A DNA stretch of 64,000 bases from Dehalococcoidia bacterium (lineage in GTDB: Bacteria; Chloroflexota; Dehalococcoidia; Lucifugimonadales; JAGWBF01): the NCBI GenBank assembly GCA_965116325.1, contig OZ220675.1:385138-449137 (forward strand), in the 5' to 3' direction. The notes under the pieces were generated by a model. That model was not told where the DNA came from, searched no databases, and was given only the letters and a program-made list of their open reading frames with translations. The position numbers and the translations under genes were made by a program. How positions within the stretch are numbered: the stretch's first letter is position 1; each line of letters begins with the position of its first letter. Shown piece by piece: positions 2,240-53,186 of this stretch.

Positions 2240-3343
2240 CTAGGGCCGGGGCCACACCACCTTTTTCGTCCCGTCCCTCCACTGCACCATAGGCACCGTC
2301 CTCCCCACTTGGGCGCCGCTGGCCGGGTCAATCTCGAAGGGGCCATAGAAGGTGGCGAACCGCAACCGCCTTACGGCCTCCATGAGGTCCGCGCTGTGCA
2401 GGCTCCCGGCTTCCATCACACAGCTCTCCACTGCCAGCCCAGCAGCATAGGCCTGGGCCATGGTGTAGTCCGCCTCCATCGTTCGGAACCCGGCGTGCCT
2501 GCTCTGAAGCTCAGCCGTCGTTGGCCCGTAGTCAGGCGCGTAGTCCAGGGCCGGCTCCCACTGGCTGGGGCCCATGAAGCCTTCCGCCATGGCTCCCATC
2601 TCTCTACCGAACAAGGATACTCCCGCCGCGACCACCACCAGCGCCTCCGCGTCCAGGGTTGCCGTTGCCAGTTCCTTCGCCAGGCCTATGTCATCCTGGA
2701 TGCGCCCCACACCGACCACAACGTCGGGGGAGCCCTCCTTGATGCGACTCGCAGCCTGTCTGAAGTCAGGAAGGTGCGGCTCGTAGGTTTCGTTGAAAAT
2801 GATCTCCCAGCCACGCTGGACGGCCCGCTCCACGAAACCCTCGGCCACAGCGCTCGGAAACGATCCCCGGGATGACCGTAGGACGGCCACTTTGCGGGGA
2901 ATGGCGTCCCTGTCCATCAGAAGGTCCACTACCCCCCATAGGTACTTGGAGGCGGGGGCTAGAATGCTGACGACCCAGCTAAAGCCGCCGTATTGCACAG
3001 CATCGGATGCGCCTCCGTGGTTCCACATCACCACGCCCAGCTCCTCGCATACGTGGGCGCAGGCCAGGCTGAGAGAGCTGGAGTAGGGCCCGAGCAGGAT
3101 GTCCGCCCGGTCTTCTTCAATCAGCCTGCGGGTTATGGAAGAGGCCGTTGCGGGCCTGCTCTCGTCATCGTAGTGAAGGAGATGTACTGGCAGAGGATCT
3201 GAGTGGCCGGTCAATCGTATTCCGCCTGCAGCGTTGCAGTCCTCGACCCAGTACCTTACGCCTTCGAAGGCCCGCGTTCCCTGGCTGCTGAACTGGCCCG
3301 TGAGGGAGATGGGAAGGCCAACCTTGATGGAGGTCCTGCTCAA
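2240..3343 (-). CDS. LivK-like (type 1 periplasmic-binding fold) ligand-binding protein with no visible signal peptide
   Basis: The N-terminus IKVGLPISLTGQFSSQG and the overall pattern are typical of branched-chain amino-acid binding proteins. The ORF starts directly at the mature-domain motif. Confidence 0.75.
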   Translation of the reverse strand: MSRTSIKVGLPISLTGQFSSQGTRAFEGVRYWVEDCNAAGGIRLTGHSDPLPVHLLHYDDESRPATASSITRRLIEEDRADILLGPYSSSLSLACAHVCEELGVVMWNHGGASDAVQYGGFSWVVSILAPASKYLWGVVDLLMDRDAIPRKVAVLRSSRGSFPSAVAEGFVERAVQRGWEIIFNETYEPHLPDFRQAASRIKEGSPDVVVGVGRIQDDIGLAKELATATLDAEALVVVAAGVSLFGREMGAMAEGFMGPSQWEPALDYAPDYGPTTAELQSRHAGFRTMEADYTMAQAYAAGLAVESCVMEAGSLHSADLMEAVRRLRFATFYGPFEIDPASGAQVGRTVPMVQWRDGTKKVVWPRP

Positions 3344-3374
3344 GCGCAGTCCGAAAAAGGCCCTGTTTGGGCGC

Positions 3375-4565
3375 TTACTCGCCGCTCAGGGGGCGGAATA
3401 TGCCAAAGGAGCTGGTGTAGCCGTGAAGGTAGGTCGATCCCGCCACAGGCCCGATCTCCCCGTTGCAGAAGAACCCCCCGAGGGGGACGTAGCCGATGGT
3501 GTCGACAAAGAGGCCGGTGTCGTGGTCGGGACGCCCGTACAGGTATTCGCCCCTGCCAAGGCAGGAGAAAAGCAGCGCGCCCGACGTATCCGTGGCCCGC
3601 TCTTCCTCGGCGTACCTGGCAAGGAGAGCGGACAGATCTTCGGCCGAGGTGATAGCATCCCGGAGATGAAACTGCACCCTCTGACCCTCCCGCAGCATCT
3701 CACCTATGGCGATAGCGCCACCCTCGGACTCAACTCCCATAACGTTGCGTATCAGGAAATCCCCCTGCTGGGGATTGTCGATGAAATCGTCCATCACAAT
3801 TCCAAGGAACAGGGAGTTCTGCATGAGGGACTGGTCACGCTCGCTTGAACGCACGAAGATCTCCTTCAGCACCTCTAGGGGAGGACGTTCGTCCAAGGCG
3901 ACTAGCATGTTGTTGCGGCTCTCGGTTATGCACATCAGGTCGCCGATAGGACGGCAGCCCTGAGCCACAACTGTGTCGATCACAATGTTGCCCTTCAGCG
4001 CCAGTCCGATGGCGCCCGAGCGGTGTATCTCGTCCCCCAGGAACAAGGCATTCTGGCCGGGCTGCTGGCCGCCGCTGGCCAGACCTCCGATCTTGGTGCT
4101 GTTCCTGTAGGCGTAGTCGATACCTTCAATAAATGCCTGGGCGGGGAAGCTGTAGGGGTCCGCCACCAGCATGAAGTAGGGGTAGTCGTCAGCGGGCACG
4201 CCCAGAGCCTCCTCCCACCTGGAAGGACTGGCATCCTGGTCGGGAACGTCGCTGCCTACCAGGTGAAAGGCTTTTACATCTACGCCGGGCATGGAAGCTA
4301 CCGTCAAGGATACCCCCGGGCTGTGCTCTACCTCCCTGGAACCTCCGATTACGCCTCCCGCCGAGCACCCGAACACCAGGACGTTTCCCAAGTGCTCCCG
4401 CACAAGCGAAGGCACGCGGCTGTACTCCCCGGCGAAATGCTGGGACACGAAGACTACTGCGACATCCCCTTGCTCACCCTGCAGCTGCTCCTTTACCTGG
4501 GTAGCGCAGATGGCGAGAGCTTCATCCAGGGACTCCTTGTCGGACACGGTGGAAGACCATTTCAT
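3375..4565 (-). CDS. FIST (N+C) domain sensory protein
   Basis: 396 aa with the FIST_N/FIST_C pattern (..VVFVSQHF.., GGLASGG, FFCNGEIGP). Confidence 0.75.
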   Translation of the reverse strand: MKWSSTVSDKESLDEALAICATQVKEQLQGEQGDVAVVFVSQHFAGEYSRVPSLVREHLGNVLVFGCSAGGVIGGSREVEHSPGVSLTVASMPGVDVKAFHLVGSDVPDQDASPSRWEEALGVPADDYPYFMLVADPYSFPAQAFIEGIDYAYRNSTKIGGLASGGQQPGQNALFLGDEIHRSGAIGLALKGNIVIDTVVAQGCRPIGDLMCITESRNNMLVALDERPPLEVLKEIFVRSSERDQSLMQNSLFLGIVMDDFIDNPQQGDFLIRNVMGVESEGGAIAIGEMLREGQRVQFHLRDAITSAEDLSALLARYAEEERATDTSGALLFSCLGRGEYLYGRPDHDTGLFVDTIGYVPLGGFFCNGEIGPVAGSTYLHGYTSSFGIFRPLSGE

Positions 4566-34282: not shown

Positions 34283-35020
34283 TTACCGGCCCCTGGTATC
34301 TCCCCACAGGTAGATGTGCAGGCGGGGGCTGAACCTCAGGTTCTCGTTCACGCAAAGCTGGCTGAGCCACGCGCTCCGCTCCTGGAGCACTGACGGGGTT
34401 CGACCCTCGGGCGAGAGGAGCACCCGCTCCCTGGGAATGGCCAGTTCTTCGACTAGCCTGCGCACCTCTTCCATGTCGGACTCTCTCGTAACCACGAACT
34501 TGAAGAAGGCCTGCGGCATGGCAGCGAAGGTCCTTAATGCCCCCGGAACGTAGCGCTTCTCCAGGGTGTTTCCCGACGTTGCCAGCTTGGGGGAGACGTT
34601 CCATTGGTCGATGTACGTGGCCATCTCAGTCGTTGGTGCAATGGTGCCGTTGGTCTCAACCTCGAAGGTGAACCCCCGGCGTTTTAAGGAGCCAATCAGT
34701 CCAGCCATCTGCTCTTGCTGCATCAATGGCTCGCCCCCGGTGACCACCATATGGGAACAGCCGTAACGCAGCACCTCGCGCTCCACATCCTCAGCGGAAA
34801 TATCCACCACCTCTTTGTCGTAGTCGTAGTTCTTCCAGTCCCACGTGTACTTGGTGTCGCACCAGGTGCAGGCCAGGTTGCACTGGGCCAAGCGCAGAAA
34901 CACTGCAGGAATCCCGGCCAAGGTGCCCTCGCCCTGGAGGGTGTGGAAAATCTCCGGCCTTCCGTCGGCCCCGCGGCTTACTTTGAGGGACGTGGTCGAG
35001 TTTCGGACATCTGCATTCAT
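34283..35020 (-). CDS. queE: 7-carboxy-7-deazaguanine synthase (radical SAM)
   Basis: Carries QGEG..AG.P.VFLRLAQCNLACTWCDTKYTW, with operon context alongside queC/D/F. Confidence 0.9.
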   Translation of the reverse strand: MNADVRNSTTSLKVSRGADGRPEIFHTLQGEGTLAGIPAVFLRLAQCNLACTWCDTKYTWDWKNYDYDKEVVDISAEDVEREVLRYGCSHMVVTGGEPLMQQEQMAGLIGSLKRRGFTFEVETNGTIAPTTEMATYIDQWNVSPKLATSGNTLEKRYVPGALRTFAAMPQAFFKFVVTRESDMEEVRRLVEELAIPRERVLLSPEGRTPSVLQERSAWLSQLCVNENLRFSPRLHIYLWGDTRGR

Positions 35021-35766
35021 TCCGACCCGCCCTTCAGCCTGACCAGCAGGGGGTCGGGATACCCCGCCTCTTCAAAGCCCTTGGCCCGCAGGATGCAGCT
35101 GTCGCAGGAACCGCAGGGCTCAGAACCTCCCTGGTAGCAGCTCCAGGTGTTGGCGAGGGGAGCGTCCAGCTCCATGGCCCACTGGACAATCTCCGCCTTT
35201 GACATGTGGATGATGGGCGTCTCGATTTCCATGGGGACGCTGTACTCACTCCACAGCTTGCTCCCGTATTTCAGGACCTCCTTCATTTTCTCGAAGAACT
35301 CGGGCCGGCAATCGGGATACCCGCTGTAGTCGATGGCGTTGGGGGCCATAAAGAGAGTGGCCTGCAGCTCATCGGCCATAACCTTCTCTTGCTCTATGGC
35401 CCACAGCGCCTGGCTCTCCAGGTAGGCCGCCCCAACGGTGATGAAGTAGGTGTTGCGCAGGGGCACGTAGGAGCTGGGAATGGACTGGCCCATCAGACTG
35501 GCATCCCGCTCTTCGGGCAGGGAGACTACGTCCGGGCTGGTCAGGGCCGAGTACCAAGCGACCTTCCCGAAGGAGGACACATCCACCAGCTCATGGCGGA
35601 TGCCCAGGGATGCGCTGACCTGGCGGGCGCTGTCCAGCTCGGTGCTGTGGGTCTGGCCGTAGTAGAAGGTGAGGGCACTCAACCGGTCAGTCCTGCCTTT
35701 GGCAAAAGCAGAGACAGTGGTGGAGTCCAGCCCGCCGGAGAGGAGGGTGACGCCAATGCTGACCAT
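35017..35766 (-). CDS. queC: 7-cyano-7-deazaguanine synthase
   Basis: Carries the LLSGGLDSTT PP-loop and the C-terminal Zn motif CYQG...CGSCDSC. Confidence 0.93.
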   Translation of the reverse strand: MVSIGVTLLSGGLDSTTVSAFAKGRTDRLSALTFYYGQTHSTELDSARQVSASLGIRHELVDVSSFGKVAWYSALTSPDVVSLPEERDASLMGQSIPSSYVPLRNTYFITVGAAYLESQALWAIEQEKVMADELQATLFMAPNAIDYSGYPDCRPEFFEKMKEVLKYGSKLWSEYSVPMEIETPIIHMSKAEIVQWAMELDAPLANTWSCYQGGSEPCGSCDSCILRAKGFEEAGYPDPLLVRLKGGSE

Positions 35767-36194
35767 TAGGGAGCCGATCGATATTCAGCGTATTGCGTGG
35801 GGGACTCCCACATTCGGACCGCTGCCGGCTCGATTCCACAAAGCTCCCTGGTCTTGTGGTATATCTCCCGGGCCATCACTTCAGCCGATGGGTTTACCCC
35901 GTCGAAAAGGTACAGAAACTGCTCCTTGACTCCCTTCAGGGCTTCGAGAAGCTCTCCGTCCCCGCTGTTCAACAAGAAGGCGTGGTCCCAGTTCATCTCT
36001 ATCCAGGCGGACACCTTCCGCTTCAGCTCACTGAAATCCACGACGAATCCGACGCTGTCCAGGGCATTGGAGGATACGAAGATTTCGACCTTGTAGTTGT
36101 GGCCGTGGGGGTGGATGCACTTGCCGTCGTGGTCCAGGAGCCGGTGGCCGGCGGAGAACTCCAGCTCCACCCGCACCTGGAAGTCATCCTTCAT
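35766..36194 (-). CDS. queD: 6-carboxy-5,6,7,8-tetrahydropterin synthase
   Basis: Carries FSAGHRL....KC...HGHNY. Confidence 0.9.
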   Translation of the reverse strand: MKDDFQVRVELEFSAGHRLLDHDGKCIHPHGHNYKVEIFVSSNALDSVGFVVDFSELKRKVSAWIEMNWDHAFLLNSGDGELLEALKGVKEQFLYLFDGVNPSAEVMAREIYHKTRELCGIEPAAVRMWESPTQYAEYRSAP

Positions 36195-36652
36195 GGTCGC
36201 TGCTCGGTGAGCGCCCTCTCGCGAGGCAGACCCTCAGCCGGATACCTGGCAGTAACGGTTGTGTGCAGACCGCCCCGGACCTTGTAGTCCAGGACTACCT
36301 CCATCCGATGGGGTTTGCAGGCGCCCACCAGGTCGTCCAGAATGCGGTTTGCGGCGCTTTCCTGAACAATGCCCACGTCCCTGTAGGAAAGCAAGTAGTA
36401 CTTGAGGGACTTGAGCTCGATACATAGCTTGTGAGGCTCATAGGTGATGCTCAGGGTCCCGTAGTCCGGGAGGCCCGTCCAGGGACACACGGCGGTGAAT
36501 TCGTCGGTCTCTATATGGACCTCGGAGTCTCCGCAAGAAGGCTCGTAGTCGAAGGACATCAGGATTGCGCTGTCGATGGACGCCTCGGGCCCTCCCTCGA
36601 TGCGCCGATCCAGGTTCTCGTAGCGATCTTTCAGCGATGCTATAGATGCCAT
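36191..36652 (-). CDS. queF: NADPH-dependent 7-cyano-7-deazaguanine reductase (type I)
   Basis: Carries EFTAVCPWTGLPDYGTLSITY and SLKYYLLSYR. Confidence 0.9.
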   Translation of the reverse strand: MASIASLKDRYENLDRRIEGGPEASIDSAILMSFDYEPSCGDSEVHIETDEFTAVCPWTGLPDYGTLSITYEPHKLCIELKSLKYYLLSYRDVGIVQESAANRILDDLVGACKPHRMEVVLDYKVRGGLHTTVTARYPAEGLPRERALTEQRP

Positions 36653-36716: not shown

Positions 36717-36745
36717 ATGATAGGTTAAGGCCCAATAGGTGTCAA
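36717..36745 (-). promoter_or_regulatory. Sigma70-like promoter of the queFDCE operon
   Basis: On the reverse strand, TTGACA (36740-36745), a 17-nt spacer and TATCAT (36717-36722), with a leader of about 60 nt. Confidence 0.5.
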
Positions 36746-37245
36746 AACCCACGGACGGCCCCCTCCTCTCTCCTTGTCATTCCTATAGTGCTGGGGTATC
36801 CTTGTTGTATCTGCCAGGTACGGGAGGGCCCTTGGCCCACGCAGGGGAAGAGGCGTTGAAAGACCAGTCCACAACAGACAAACTCGCCGGCGCCGAGCTG
36901 CTCGAATCCCCAGCAGAACTGGAAGAGATACAGGTGCTGCTGAAAGAGGCGGTCGCTTCGGAGCCTTCCCTTCGACTGCTGCCCAAGTTCGCTATGGCGC
37001 GAGCCGGAAACCCCGACTTCCACCGGGTCTACTTCGCCATCCATTGCACATGTGGGACTGCGGGCCTCGTCTGCGTCGAAACAGCCAAGTCCAAGACCCT
37101 GCCCCAGGTTGAGAATGCTCTGCCTACCCTCGCACAGCACCTGTTGAGCAGGGCAAGGCAGTTTGCCAGCATGCCCTGCTCAATGCACACAAGCATGCGC
37201 TCTATGGGCATCCAGGCTTCGAAGCAAGCTGGTGAGGGGAGCTGA
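36739..37245 (+). CDS. Hypothetical Cys-containing protein, start uncertain, stop 1 nt before the FTR-like gene
   Basis: The open frame ends at TGA 37243-37245 and the next ATG is at 37247. I recognise no family. In-frame TTG candidates lie at 36832 and 36856. An antisense ORF of similar length exists. Confidence 0.35.
   Translation: MSKPTDGPLLSPCHSYSAGVSLLYLPGTGGPLAHAGEEALKDQSTTDKLAGAELLESPAELEEIQVLLKEAVASEPSLRLLPKFAMARAGNPDFHRVYFAIHCTCGTAGLVCVETAKSKTLPQVENALPTLAQHLLSRARQFASMPCSMHTSMRSMGIQASKQAGEGS
36775..36803 (+). promoter_or_regulatory. Possible promoter for the selenoprotein operon
   Basis: TTGTCA (36775-36780), a 17-nt spacer and TATCCT (36798-36803). The -10 is weak. If it is real, the ORF start at 36739 is not used. 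Confidence 0.2.
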
Positions 37246-37246
37246 T

Positions 37247-37663
37247 ATGCCAAAGAAGATCGACCCGGAAAAGGCGATGGAGGGCGCCATCCGCTTTTCG
37301 GAAAAGTACGTAGAGAAGAGCGGGTACAAGTTCTTCCCCGACCAGGAAGTGGTACGCCTCGTGCAGGAAGGCCTGGCCCGCAACCAGGTGGAGTACGGGT
37401 ACCGCTACTGCCCCTGAATGCCCCTCAGCGGCGATCCCGTCGAGGACCGCAAGAAGATTTGCCCCTGCGACCGGCACCATGAGGACATAGAACGGGATGG
37501 TTTCTGTATTTGAATGTTCTTCGTAAGCGAAGAGTTTCTTCGCCAACAGGAACAAGGAAACGACATCGAGCAGACCATAGGTGAGGCAGTTAAGCCCGGT
37601 GAAGGCCTGTTCGACCAGCCATATAAGTCGAAAGCAGACCAGAAGGGCAGCCAGAGTACGTAG
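37247..37663 (+). CDS. Ferredoxin:thioredoxin reductase catalytic-subunit homolog, predicted selenoprotein with two Sec (UGA at 37415-37417 and 37511-37513)
   Basis: GAGGGGA RBS. The read-through translation is MPKK..FSEKYVEKSGYKFFPDQEVVRLVQEGLARNQVEYGYRYCP-U-MPLSGDPVEDRKKICPCDRHHEDIERDGFCI-U-MFFVSEEF... It aligns to the FTR motifs CPC / CPC / CHCMLF, and both UGAs sit on the second Cys of motifs 1 and 3. The frame stays open to TAG 37661. Confidence 0.75.
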
Positions 37664-37678
37664 AGGAGCTGAGAAGCT

Positions 37679-37915
37679 GTGAGCATAACCGTTTACACAT
37701 CTGTTGGTTGAGGCCCCTGCCACATGGTGAAAGTGTATCTTTCACAGAAGGGGCTCGAGTTCACCGAACGAAACGTATCGCTGGACGAAAATGCCAGAGA
37801 AGACCTGCTCTCCCTGGGATATCGCAGCACACCCGTGACTGTGATAAACGACGAGAAGGTCGTAGGTTACAGTCCTCCCAAGCTGGAAGAAGCCCTGCAG
37901 ACAGCCGGGATCTAG
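37679..37915 (+). CDS. NrdH/glutaredoxin-like redoxin, predicted selenoprotein (UGA at 37709-37711; active site U-G-P-C)
   Basis: GTG start 10 nt after GAGGAG. The translation (M)SITVYTSVG-U-GPCHMVKVYLSQKGLEFTERNVSLDENAREDLLSLGYRSTPVTVINDEKVVGYSP fits the Grx/NrdH fold. The tracked ORF (37724-) lacks strand 1 and the CxxC motif. Confidence 0.8.
37713..37754 (+). promoter_or_regulatory. SECIS-like stem-loop 3' of the redoxin UGA
   Basis: Lower stem GCCCCU/AGGGGC (37713-18 / 37749-54), upper stem GUGAAAG/CUUUCAC (37727-33 / 37739-45) and apical loop UGUAU, about 23 nt after the UGA. Confidence 0.5.
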
Positions 37916-37969: not shown

Positions 37970-38872
37970 CTACTTGCCCAGGAGCTTCATCAGTAGAGCC
38001 ATCCTGACGTACAAGCCGTTCTCCGCTTGACGATAGCCGGCCCAGCGGGGGTCGCCAGTCTCCTCGATCACCAGATCGCTGCGTTGCATAGGGTCGAGGA
38101 TCACACACCCGGGTTTTAGGGCCGCCAGCAGCTCATTGTCAACCTTGGCTTCCGCTATGTTGCGGCTTCTCACCAGCTCCGCATGGCCCGGGGTGCTTGC
38201 GCCGTTGACGTACACCGCATCTAGGGATCCGGCCAGATCCATCAAAGATGTGCCCTGGGTGAATGCGATGCCCGCCCCGGTGCTGTAGTCGATGGTGTCC
38301 TGGTCAGCCTGTCCCGTTACAGGGAACAGGTGCACCTTGATGTTCTCGTACATGGCGAGGGCCGTCAAAAGGGCGTTCACGTTTCTATGATCGAGCCTGC
38401 CCAGGAAGGCGATGTTCAGCCCATCGACACTCCCCAACTCCCGCTTGAGTGTGTACAAGTCCAGGAGCGCCTGGGTAGGGTGGTCTTCGGGGCTGCCCCC
38501 ATTGATGACCGCCAGGCCTCCGGCCTCGGCAGCTTGCTCCGCCGCCCCCGTCTGCTGAGACCTTAAGACGACCACGTCGAAGTGCAGACTGCCCAGGAAC
38601 CTCATTGTGTTCTCTATGAAAGTGGTTGTTCTGACGGGGAAGAACTGGGATGCATCCTCGGTGTGCTGGGCATCGCCCCCGAGTAGGGCCATCGCCCGCT
38701 CGAAGGATGCCCGGGTTAGAAAGCTGGGCTCGTAAAACAGGCAGTACAGGGACCGTCCCTGCAACGCCTGTGCAACGGGAGCGCCGTCTCGAATGCGGTC
38801 GCACAGGGGAAACAGATCCTCTTCGATCCATTGACGCTCCATGTCCCTGGTCCGTATCAGATGATTCGGCAA
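37970..38872 (-). CDS. Aspartate/ornithine carbamoyltransferase-family protein with degenerate carbamoyl-phosphate motifs
   Basis: HPTQALLD is present. The STRTR motif reads SFLTR, and the HP(L/A)P region reads DPMQ. Confidence 0.75.
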   Translation of the reverse strand: MPNHLIRTRDMERQWIEEDLFPLCDRIRDGAPVAQALQGRSLYCLFYEPSFLTRASFERAMALLGGDAQHTEDASQFFPVRTTTFIENTMRFLGSLHFDVVVLRSQQTGAAEQAAEAGGLAVINGGSPEDHPTQALLDLYTLKRELGSVDGLNIAFLGRLDHRNVNALLTALAMYENIKVHLFPVTGQADQDTIDYSTGAGIAFTQGTSLMDLAGSLDAVYVNGASTPGHAELVRSRNIAEAKVDNELLAALKPGCVILDPMQRSDLVIEETGDPRWAGYRQAENGLYVRMALLMKLLGK

Positions 38873-39065: not shown

Positions 39066-40100
39066 TTGGACAACATACTGGTAACCGGCGGTGCGGGATT
39101 CCTGGGAATGACCCTTGTGAAGAGCTTGGTTGGCTTTGGGGTCCGCCCGCGGGTGCTGGATATCAACATCCCCGGACACCCCGACCTGGAGTCCAACATG
39201 GAGTTCATCCACGGGGACATCCGCAATCCCGACACCGTCCACAGGGCTGTGCGGGGAATGGATGTGGTGTTTCACCTGGCAGCAGCCGTGCTGCCCACCA
39301 GGGGCAAGCGGGCGTACACATCCACCAACACCGAGGGCACACGGAACCTGCTCCAAGCATCCCTCGACCATAACGTCAGGCAGGTAGTGCACGTATCCAC
39401 CAGCGCCATATACGGCATTCCCCGCGAGCTACCGGTCACCGAGGAGTCCGAGCTTCGTCCCATGGGCTACTACGGGAACGCCAAATACCAGGGAGAGCTG
39501 TTGGTGCGGGAGTACCGCGGCCGGGGTCTTAGAGTGTGCGTCCTCAGACCACGGACCATCATCGGCACCGAACGCCTGGGAATATTCCACATCCTCTTCG
39601 ACTGGATCAAAGAGGGAAAGAGAGTCCCCATCATCGGCAAGGGCGACAACCTATTCCAGTTTGTGAGCGCCCGGGACTGCGTGTCCGCTTGCTTCAAGGC
39701 AGTGGATGCCGAAAGCAACGATGACTTCAACCTGGGGGCGGAGGAGTTCTCCACGGTTAAGGGGGACTTGGAAGGGCTGACCGCCCACGCAAATACGGGT
39801 TCCCGCGTCGCCCCCGTTCCCGCTCCCATGGTGAAGGCACCTCTCCAGGTCCTGGACCTGCTCAGGCTATCCCCCCTCATGGACTGGCAGTACAAGGTGG
39901 CCGACAAGCCCTTTTACTTCGACATCACCAAGGCCAAGACAGACCTGGGATGGCAGCCCAGGGACAGCAACCTCAGCATGTTCACCGACTCCTACGATTG
40001 GTACACAAACAATTATGTCGATACCGCCGAAGCTTACGGGTCAACCCATCGCCAAGCTGTGCGCCAACGCTTTCTCCGCTTGCTCAAGGGCGTGTTCTAA
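39066..40100 (+). CDS. NAD-dependent epimerase/dehydratase (extended SDR)
   Basis: Carries VTGGAGFLG and a YGNAK catalytic YxxxK. TTG start. Confidence 0.88.
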   Translation: MDNILVTGGAGFLGMTLVKSLVGFGVRPRVLDINIPGHPDLESNMEFIHGDIRNPDTVHRAVRGMDVVFHLAAAVLPTRGKRAYTSTNTEGTRNLLQASLDHNVRQVVHVSTSAIYGIPRELPVTEESELRPMGYYGNAKYQGELLVREYRGRGLRVCVLRPRTIIGTERLGIFHILFDWIKEGKRVPIIGKGDNLFQFVSARDCVSACFKAVDAESNDDFNLGAEEFSTVKGDLEGLTAHANTGSRVAPVPAPMVKAPLQVLDLLRLSPLMDWQYKVADKPFYFDITKAKTDLGWQPRDSNLSMFTDSYDWYTNNYVDTAEAYGSTHRQAVRQRFLRLLKGVF

Positions 40101-52777: not shown

Positions 52778-53109
52778 TGGTGGAGACGGGGGAGGGTCGA
52801 ACTCCCCGTCCAGAAGGCAGCCCAGCTAGATATACTACAGGCTTATCCGGTCCTTAACTCTCGCCCTGCCGTGCTTCACCGGCATAACATGGCAGGCCTC
52901 AGCCGATGTTTCTTGAGCTGCCCTTATCGGCGTCTGGACAACAGCATCCCGGAATTATGGCGCCTGTGACCCAACCTCCGGGCATGGTCGGGGCAGACGA
53001 GCCGCCAGTTTAGGCGGCTAGGGCGAGTTCACGTTCGCCAGTTACTGTTTTGCCACCTGTTTAGCGAGGTGGATGGCACCTCGGCCTGCGATCCTCCAGG
53101 TTGGTCCCC
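52778..53109 (-). ncRNA. ssrA: tmRNA (ssrA), tag reading frame GGC GAA CGU GAA CUC GCC CUA GCC GCC UAA = GERELALAA
   Basis: On the reverse strand, the 5' GGGGACC... pairs with the 3' ...GGGGAGUUCGACCCUCCCCCGUCUCCACCA (tRNA-Ala-like acceptor with G3:U70, T-arm and encoded CCA). The tag ORF lies at 53010-53039. Confidence 0.9.
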
Positions 53110-53186
53110 TGTCGAACCCACGCGTCCCCAGATGTGTGAACACCCATATTATCCCACTTCTCACGCTTCCCCGTCCAGTGCCGAGC

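Follow-up and report, generated by a model that had tools for sequence, protein, structure and literature searches.

A 64-kb stretch of Dehalococcoidia bacterium DNA (hereafter the window, whose positions serve as coordinates throughout) carries a compact plus-strand locus for three proteins: an uncharacterised Cys/His protein (UPS), a homologue of the catalytic subunit of ferredoxin:thioredoxin reductase (FTR) with two selenocysteine (Sec) residues, and a glutaredoxin/NrdH-like redoxin with a third. The locus is bounded by the divergently transcribed queF and an OTCase-like gene, and the interval between them holds the three plus-strand frames, their candidate expression signals and one antisense open reading frame (ORF):

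36774-36802, plus strand: sigma-70-like promoter match TTGTCA-17-TATCCT, weak and a consensus match only, between the divergent queF and the UPS TTG
36832-37245, plus strand: UPS, uncharacterised Cys/His protein of 137 aa; TTG start, TGA stop at 37243-37245
37247-37663, plus strand: FtrB-family double-selenoprotein (FTR catalytic-subunit homologue), 138 codons; ATG start, motifs C55-P-U57, C72-P-C74 and C87-I-U89
37663-37668, plus strand: GAGGAG ribosome-binding site of the redoxin gene, read directly from the sequence, with one base in common with the FTR stop
37679-37915, plus strand: glutaredoxin/NrdH-like selenoprotein, 78 codons; GTG start, active site U11-G-P-C14
37202-37723, minus strand: 173-aa antisense shadow ORF, not a gene according to the comparative data

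An earlier sequence-only annotation of this DNA (the original prediction) had described three tightly spaced plus-strand frames, and its coordinates are all correct: a single nucleotide separates the UPS stop (TGA 37243-37245) from the FTR ATG at 37247, and the G of the FTR stop (TAG 37661-37663) doubles as the first base of the GAGGAG motif, with the redoxin GTG at 37679 following 10 nt further on. The upstream frame itself also stands, both as an existing and as a conserved gene, with a corrected start. Taken as the longest ORF it would run from GTG 36739 to TGA 37245 (168 aa), the form originally proposed; the residues ahead of TTG 36832 are not conserved among relatives, and public gene calls have the TTG form, so that by sequence comparison the best start is TTG 36832 (137 aa) and not GTG 36739. 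The promoter-like site at 36774-36802 falls within the long form.

Recoding of three in-frame UGA codons

Each of the two selenoprotein frames is read through TGA codons, and each of these is followed by a hairpin resembling a bacterial selenocysteine insertion sequence (SECIS):

37415-37417, plus strand: UGA for Sec57 of the FTR homologue, matching Cys57 of Synechocystis FTR, which is exposed at the surface and attacks the substrate, as in PMC2398784
37431-37450, plus strand: SECIS-like hairpin 1 (GCG-AU-CC / loop CGUCGA / GG-AC-CGC), RNAalifold consensus of 72 distinct sequences
37511-37513, plus strand: UGA for Sec89 of the FTR homologue, equivalent of the cluster-interacting Cys87
37527-37543, plus strand: SECIS-like hairpin 2 (GCGAAGA-GUU-UCUUCGC), with an extended stem at 37515-37554 (minimum free energy -16.9 kcal/mol, z = -2.5)
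37709-37711, plus strand: UGA for Sec11 of the redoxin, in-frame TGA at codon 11
37727-37745, plus strand: SECIS-like hairpin 3 (GUGAAAG-UGUAU-CUUUCAC), in the redoxin gene, 3' of the Sec11 UGA

A scan of one genome per species returned 198 genomes with an FTR relative, the best 80 of which, all metagenome-assembled genomes (MAGs) of Dehalococcoidia/Chloroflexota and one of them labelled SAR202, were analysed as loci L001-L080. TGA occupies FTR codons 57 and 89 in 81/81 sequences and redoxin codon 11 in 80/80, the cysteines neighbouring the TGAs are always Cys across relatives, and the proteins stay conserved in frame beyond each TGA, with 65-97% identity for the FTR homologue and 53-96% for the redoxin across the 80 genomes. 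Comparison of the window with 52 gap-free relatives gives 920, 507 and 2664 substitutions at sense codon positions 1, 2 and 3, respectively. Such a pattern of TGA retention and conservation is far beyond chance, and as far as comparative data reach, Sec recoding at the three UGAs is established.

The hairpins point in the same direction. They begin 13-15 nt past each UGA and present a G-U in the apical loop, with the loop G lying 23-26 nt from the first base of the UGA (24 nt for hairpin 1). In the bSECISearch model, the spacing from UGA to loop is about 16-37 nt. All three agree with the bacterial SECIS criterion, namely a stem-loop that follows the UGA at a short distance and has a conserved G(U) in its apical loop. 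The codons that make up the stems are, moreover, nearly frozen: G62 is GGC in 76/81 sequences, E66 GAG in 78/80 and R68 CGC in 79/81 in hairpin 1, where third positions vary in the loop and bulge; S94 is AGC in 80/81, E96 GAG in 81/81 and L98 CTT in 81/81 in hairpin 2; and V17 is GTG in 78/78, V19 GTG in 76/76, L21 CTT in 79/79 and S22 TCA in 78/79 in hairpin 3. Outside the hairpin stems, the same amino acids use three to six codons in these genes.

A further bias is seen in the codon immediately ahead of each Sec UGA (window 37412-37414, 37508-37510 and 37706-37708), with Pro56 encoded as CCT in 69/81 sequences, Ile88 as ATT or ATA in 76/81 and Gly10 as GGT in 55/78, and an invariant Met follows both FTR Sec residues; these flanking preferences may reflect a context effect on recoding.

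Identity of the reductase and the redoxin

With U written as C for profile and structure comparisons, the protein encoded by the middle gene matches the Pfam family FeThRed_B (PF02943; 7e-26, 90.7 bits against a cut-off of 22) and the NCBIfam equivalog NF041072, 'FtrB family double-selenoprotein' (226.3 bits, cut-off 160). Its closest solved structure is the Methanosarcina ferredoxin:disulfide reductase (FDR) 4TPU (5e-15), followed by 7PWE, while structures of the plant and cyanobacterial FTR catalytic chain (FTRC) are more distant (E 1e-7 to 1e-8). Both Sec positions face Cys in the alignments to 4TPU, 7PWE and 7BZK, and the cluster-ligand cysteines C55, C72, C74 and C87 are invariant in 81 FTR sequences, such that the Sec residues stand precisely where the redox-active pair would be and all four cluster ligands are retained. 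These comparisons identify the middle gene as a homologue of the FTR catalytic subunit with a Sec pair at the redox-active Cys positions, and its product is a predicted [4Fe-4S] ferredoxin:disulfide reductase. No fused rubredoxin domain was found in the 138-aa protein, which has no Cys beyond residue 89 and whose match to 4TPU is confined to the FTR-like part, and no gene for an FTR variable subunit (PF02941, FeThRed_A) lies among the called neighbours at the locus.

The redoxin matches PF00462 (2e-14, 53.7 bits, cut-off 22.9), and its nearest solved structures are the glutaredoxin 7C10 and the NrdH proteins 4FIW and 1R7H. Its U11-G-P-C14 motif aligns to the CxxC of 7C10, a CxxC-type site at the N-terminus of helix 1, and Cys14 is present in 80/80 sequences. 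The best NCBIfam match is the YruB-family model TIGR02196 at 73.8 bits, below its cut-off of 88.55, and the NrdH model TIGR02194 gives 59.3 bits, below 85.75; the UXX-star glutaredoxin-like models NF041212, NF041211 and NF041114 give 44, 39.9 and 17.8 bits, none reaching the respective cut-offs of 66, 100 and 72. By profile and structure comparison, the protein is accordingly placed as glutaredoxin-fold and NrdH/YruB-like, outside every curated subfamily. Both assignments of the original prediction, an FTR with Sec at the redox-active positions and a redoxin whose CxxC has Sec as its first residue, are borne out by these matches. The novelty that it implied for a selenium FTR is not: a double-Sec FTR homologue was reported in 2008 from two Global Ocean Sampling reads without gene context by Zhang & Gladyshev (PMC2398784), who already matched the two Sec residues to the redox-active Cys pair; the family has a curated NCBIfam model, NF041072; and a table in a 2026 review lists it under that accession. 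As a protein, the FTR homologue described here is no different from that family, and what is added is its organismal home, Dehalococcoidia/SAR202, and its fixed partners.

Comparison with known systems defines what sets the locus apart. The plant and cyanobacterial FTRs (1DJ7, 2PU9, 7BZK) share the catalytic fold and the CPC...CPC...CxC pattern around the [4Fe-4S] cluster, whereas here Sec stands for both active cysteines with C-I-U in place of C-H-C, the protein continues into a conserved C-terminal extension of about 40 residues, the neighbourhood has no PF02941 gene, and the co-encoded putative substrate has a glutaredoxin rather than a thioredoxin fold. Methanosarcina FDR, the closest solved relative, is built on a similar principle, with an FTR-like enzyme acting on a small NrdH/glutaredoxin-like redoxin, and the M. 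barkeri pair is reported to feed a class III ribonucleotide reductase (RNR; Wei et al. 2015). FDR is, however, all-Cys with a fused rubredoxin domain, whereas the reductase and redoxin studied here lack that domain, carry three Sec residues between them, are always accompanied by a separate Cys3-His UPS encoded upstream and have no RNR gene as a conserved neighbour. A precedent for a Sec-to-Sec relay is the selenoprotein glutaredoxin of Clostridium oremlandii, a glutaredoxin-fold UxxC protein that exchanges with a Sec-containing partner and is reported for its 'tandem use of selenocysteine' with Sec-MsrA (Kim et al. 2011); yet it belongs to another glutaredoxin subfamily (4TR0 matches our redoxin at 3e-5 only), its system is glutathione-linked, and its partner is a downstream target and not an upstream reductase.

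Natural variants of the reductase also occur. All-Cys FTR homologues exist (P0028 and P0029), and P0028 (CPC...CPC...CHC; L082:3361-4306), from another lineage and with no UPS, is encoded 22 nt past the gene for a 205-aa protein of thioredoxin/peroxiredoxin fold, which makes another reductase-redoxin pairing. A member of the same FtrB subfamily, P0025 (L083:397-840), has Cys57 and a TGA at position 89 only; its 2.9-kb contig carries neither UPS nor the redoxin, and some 250 nt further downstream the opposite strand encodes a 47-aa desulforedoxin-like protein (Desulfoferrod_N).

Conservation of the trio and the upstream protein

When the three window proteins were searched by tblastn against the 80 loci, UPS, the FTR homologue and the redoxin were found together in 79, the exception being a 2.2-kb contig without flanks. 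UPS always immediately precedes FTR on the same strand: in about 17 loci the two genes overlap or stand no more than 3 nt apart, and in the others the distance is mostly 20-90 nt; the redoxin gene is usually downstream of FTR and is divergent upstream of UPS in 11 loci. A metagenome scan through UPS alone, using a narrower UPS alignment, returned 15 loci, 13 of which have a double-TGA FTR and a TGA redoxin downstream; the other two end at UPS, so 13/13 informative loci hold the trio. Co-occurrence of the three genes in relatives had been named beforehand as a test of the original prediction, its absence counting as refutation, and it was found in 79/80 and 13/13 cases. This obligate co-location supports, at the level of genome comparison, a functional link within the trio.

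Other neighbours vary, the most frequent being a RidA-like gene (25/80 loci); epimerase/dehydratase homologues occur in the fetched flanks of 21/80 loci, que genes in 12/80 and an OTCase-like gene in 5/80, and no conserved RNR, transporter or metal-resistance neighbour was found across the 80 loci. One subclade (L030, L037, L042, L046, L050, L059, L065, L067, L068 and L072) has the redoxin gene divergent, at about 3270-3570 on the minus strand, with the UPS-FTR pair intact, and its UPS proteins form a distinct sequence group. Apparent in-frame UPS-FTR fusions in L021, L030 and L042 were rejected, since the tblastn alignment had run across the UPS stop and the translations show that stop.

UPS belongs to a family of 259 homologues, all unnamed or 'hypothetical'. 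A search of 1.84 billion representatives gave 79 clusters of the family at 50% identity, nearly all of them small stand-alone proteins (one weak match has 251 aa). Its invariant residues are F63, C72, C74, T76, E83, K88, P98, F111, M114, C116 and H119, and they contain an invariant C72-x-C74 ... C116-x-x-H119 motif; H64 and H71 are conserved in close relatives and not invariant in the family. The AlphaFold2 model, built from 115 sequences (pLDDT 83, pTM 0.69), predicts an alpha/beta rather than a beta-barrel topology in the order alpha-beta-beta-beta-alpha-alpha, with the CxC at the tip of a beta-hairpin and the CxxH at the turn between the two C-terminal helices. In this model the two half-motifs would lie at the same end of the molecule, and a Cys3-His metal or redox site is plausible.

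The family resists assignment. UPS has no match in Pfam or NCBIfam, Pfam scans of 16 diverse members returned noise only, its profile has no match among PDB sequences, and Foldseek comparison of the model with the PDB gave nothing better than E = 0.12 (TM 0.37). A candidate origin of UPS as a diverged FTRC paralogue was rejected, the profile-profile comparison of UPS with FTR giving a probability of 0.2%. The protein-level conservation of the upstream frame, whose absence the original prediction had named as counting against it, is evident in the 259 homologues, whereas its further suggestion of an accessory or electron-donor subunit finds no support in these searches, which linked UPS neither to FTRC or the FTR variable chain nor to any solved structure; for such a role, analogy with known reductases allows a guess.

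In the literature consulted, with recent selenoprotein-neighbourhood work not covered, we found no description of the fixed trio, its Dehalococcoidia/SAR202 home, the obligatory Sec pairing or the UPS family, and NCBIfam release 20 has no model capturing UPS or this redoxin, which suggests that neither has been curated and argues against prior notice of the trio. The reductase is already known; the operon-level unit and the UPS partner appear to be new. A family known from two metagenomic reads is now placed in a near-invariant trio of Dehalococcoidia/SAR202, which offers a concrete system for asking why selenium is used on both sides of a thiol-disulfide exchange, and which bears on how a diselenide behaves beside an iron-sulfur cluster and on the electron supply to FTR-like enzymes in non-photosynthetic bacteria.

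A proposed selenium relay and its rivals

The best explanation of these observations, which we hold with moderate confidence, is that the three-gene unit of Dehalococcoidia (Chloroflexota, including SAR202) is a self-contained operon with a fixed gene trio, and that it encodes a ferredoxin-dependent FTR/FDR-type reductase-to-redoxin relay run on selenium; we favour it because of fold homology, the exact placement of the Sec residues and genetic linkage. By analogy with plant and cyanobacterial FTR and with the Methanosarcina FDR-NrdH pair, a low-potential donor would pass single electrons to the cluster, either from ferredoxin directly or via a metal centre in UPS, in which case UPS would be an accessory subunit or the point of electron entry. 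The first electron would open the Sec57-Sec89 diselenide, with Sec89 staying on the cluster; the Sec57 selenolate would attack the selenium of the redoxin Sec11-Cys14 selenenylsulfide and form an intermolecular Se-Se intermediate; and the second electron would free Sec89, which would resolve the intermediate and release the reduced redoxin to act on targets encoded elsewhere. The Se-Se intermediate and the role of the redoxin as dedicated substrate are reasonable inferences from this analogy, and both fit the co-location of the genes.

In a more specific form, which we put forward tentatively and consider possible rather than probable, the trio would be one dedicated machine in which UPS, as a Cys3-His metal-centre subunit, feeds the cluster and catalysis proceeds wholly on selenium. 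If so, UPS would take the place of the FDR rubredoxin domain or the FTR variable chain, and the enzyme, with a diselenide beside its [4Fe-4S] cluster, would pass through an intermediate with an Fe-Se bond and through an intermolecular Se-Se link, in what would be the first natural all-selenium electron relay, found in abundant ocean and subsurface bacteria.

Several results weigh against the proposed relay. On the side of recoding, RNAalifold detected no compensatory base-pair changes (72 distinct sequences for hairpin 1), because the hairpin sequences hardly vary; neither a SECIS family nor any other RNA family in Rfam matches the hairpins at the locus; and selA, selB, selD and tRNA-Sec are absent from the 64-kb window, a tblastn search of which with an approximate E. 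coli SelD query likewise gave no match. Sec decoding in the source genome consequently rests on the recoding signature and on literature for the class, which is documented as selenoprotein-rich, with Dehalococcoidia MAGs reported to hold 46-49 selenoprotein genes. On the side of UPS, FTR-like relatives outside the clade occur without it, no recognisable cofactor-binding family or fold emerged from Foldseek, the PDB profile search or Pfam, and no fusion to FTR or to another known domain was found among the family representatives, so that Rosetta-stone support is lacking. The electron flow itself is argued from sequence and comparison.

The results on UPS would also suit a protein outside the enzyme, one that the FTR homologue and redoxin keep reduced as their client or as a sensor; it could be a small regulator or a redox switch of the zinc-thiolate or dithiol kind. 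Besides its occurrence as a small stand-alone protein never fused to FTR, its dissimilarity to electron-transfer protein families and the existence of FTR-like enzymes elsewhere without it, the conserved Cys3-His motif speaks for such a function; the CxC...CxxH of UPS may resemble the CxC...CxxC zinc centre of Hsp33. The order and adjacency of UPS and FTR are nevertheless stricter than those of FTR and redoxin, some members of the clade couple the translation of the two genes, as is more usual for subunits produced in a constant ratio, and no DNA-binding or chaperone domain was detected in UPS; we regard a client or sensor role as unlikely on balance, though worth serious consideration. It is improbable that the main task of the Sec residues is to bind soft metals or metalloids (for instance Hg, As or Se) in a detoxification or selenium-trafficking module. 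Metal binding has been proposed for several recently described bacterial selenoproteins, among them distant glutaredoxin-like ones, as a review notes, and the motif of UPS is of a metal type; against this, the Sec positions coincide with the catalytic redox cysteines of well-understood oxidoreductase folds, transporter and metal-resistance genes are missing as conserved neighbours, and the redoxin scores below the UXX-star model cut-offs.

A last rival denies recoding altogether and takes the TGAs as ordinary stops of small ORFs or pseudogenes, the real gene being the 173-aa antisense ORF. This frame is indeed the longest uninterrupted ORF over the locus, as originally noted, and many relatives have related antisense ORFs that are open. 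It is, however, interrupted by stops in 28/52 relatives, its amino-acid identity is 0.54 against 0.80 for the sense frames, variation concentrates at sense third positions, its product has no Pfam match, and conservation runs in frame across all three TGAs in 80 genomes; the antisense gene is already refuted by these comparative data, and its probability is negligible. The accompanying expectation that a gene caller would annotate the antisense frame and so mask the selenoprotein genes did not hold, as the frame was never called: on an identical public contig the plus-strand calls are UPS (137 aa), an FTR fragment of 56 aa cut off by the first UGA and a redoxin fragment of 63 aa that starts at the ATG past the UGA, with no antisense gene, and a collection of 15 billion proteins contains both plus-strand fragments but not the exact antisense protein. 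One relative's fragment carries the NCBI name 'hypothetical protein', and in a set of public metagenome calls (P0016-P0024) both Sec positions read Trp (CPWM..., FCIWM...), evidently because short contigs were translated with UGA as a Trp codon, so that Sec is mistranslated there and not truncated. Public data therefore truncate or mistranslate both selenoproteins without any antisense masking, and annotation of these abundant bacteria does so systematically, by truncation or by reading UGA as Trp.

Beyond the selenium trio and its proposed relay, the surrounding window holds a queuosine-precursor operon with overlapping stops and starts on the minus strand (34283-36652), divergent from UPS, as well as two genes 3' of the trio and two RNA genes, the latter being the only ones found in the window:

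34283-35020, minus strand: likely QueE radical-SAM gene, part of the queuosine-precursor operon
35017-35766, minus strand: QueC, part of the same operon
35766-36194, minus strand: QueD/PTPS, part of the same operon
36191-36652, minus strand: QueF, part of the same operon
37970-38872, minus strand: OTCase-family gene (PF02729/PF00185), 3' of the trio
39066-40100, plus strand: NAD-dependent epimerase/dehydratase gene, 3' of the trio
52778-53129, minus strand: tmRNA gene, tag peptide GERELALAA
58597-58668, plus strand: tRNA-Ala(TGC)

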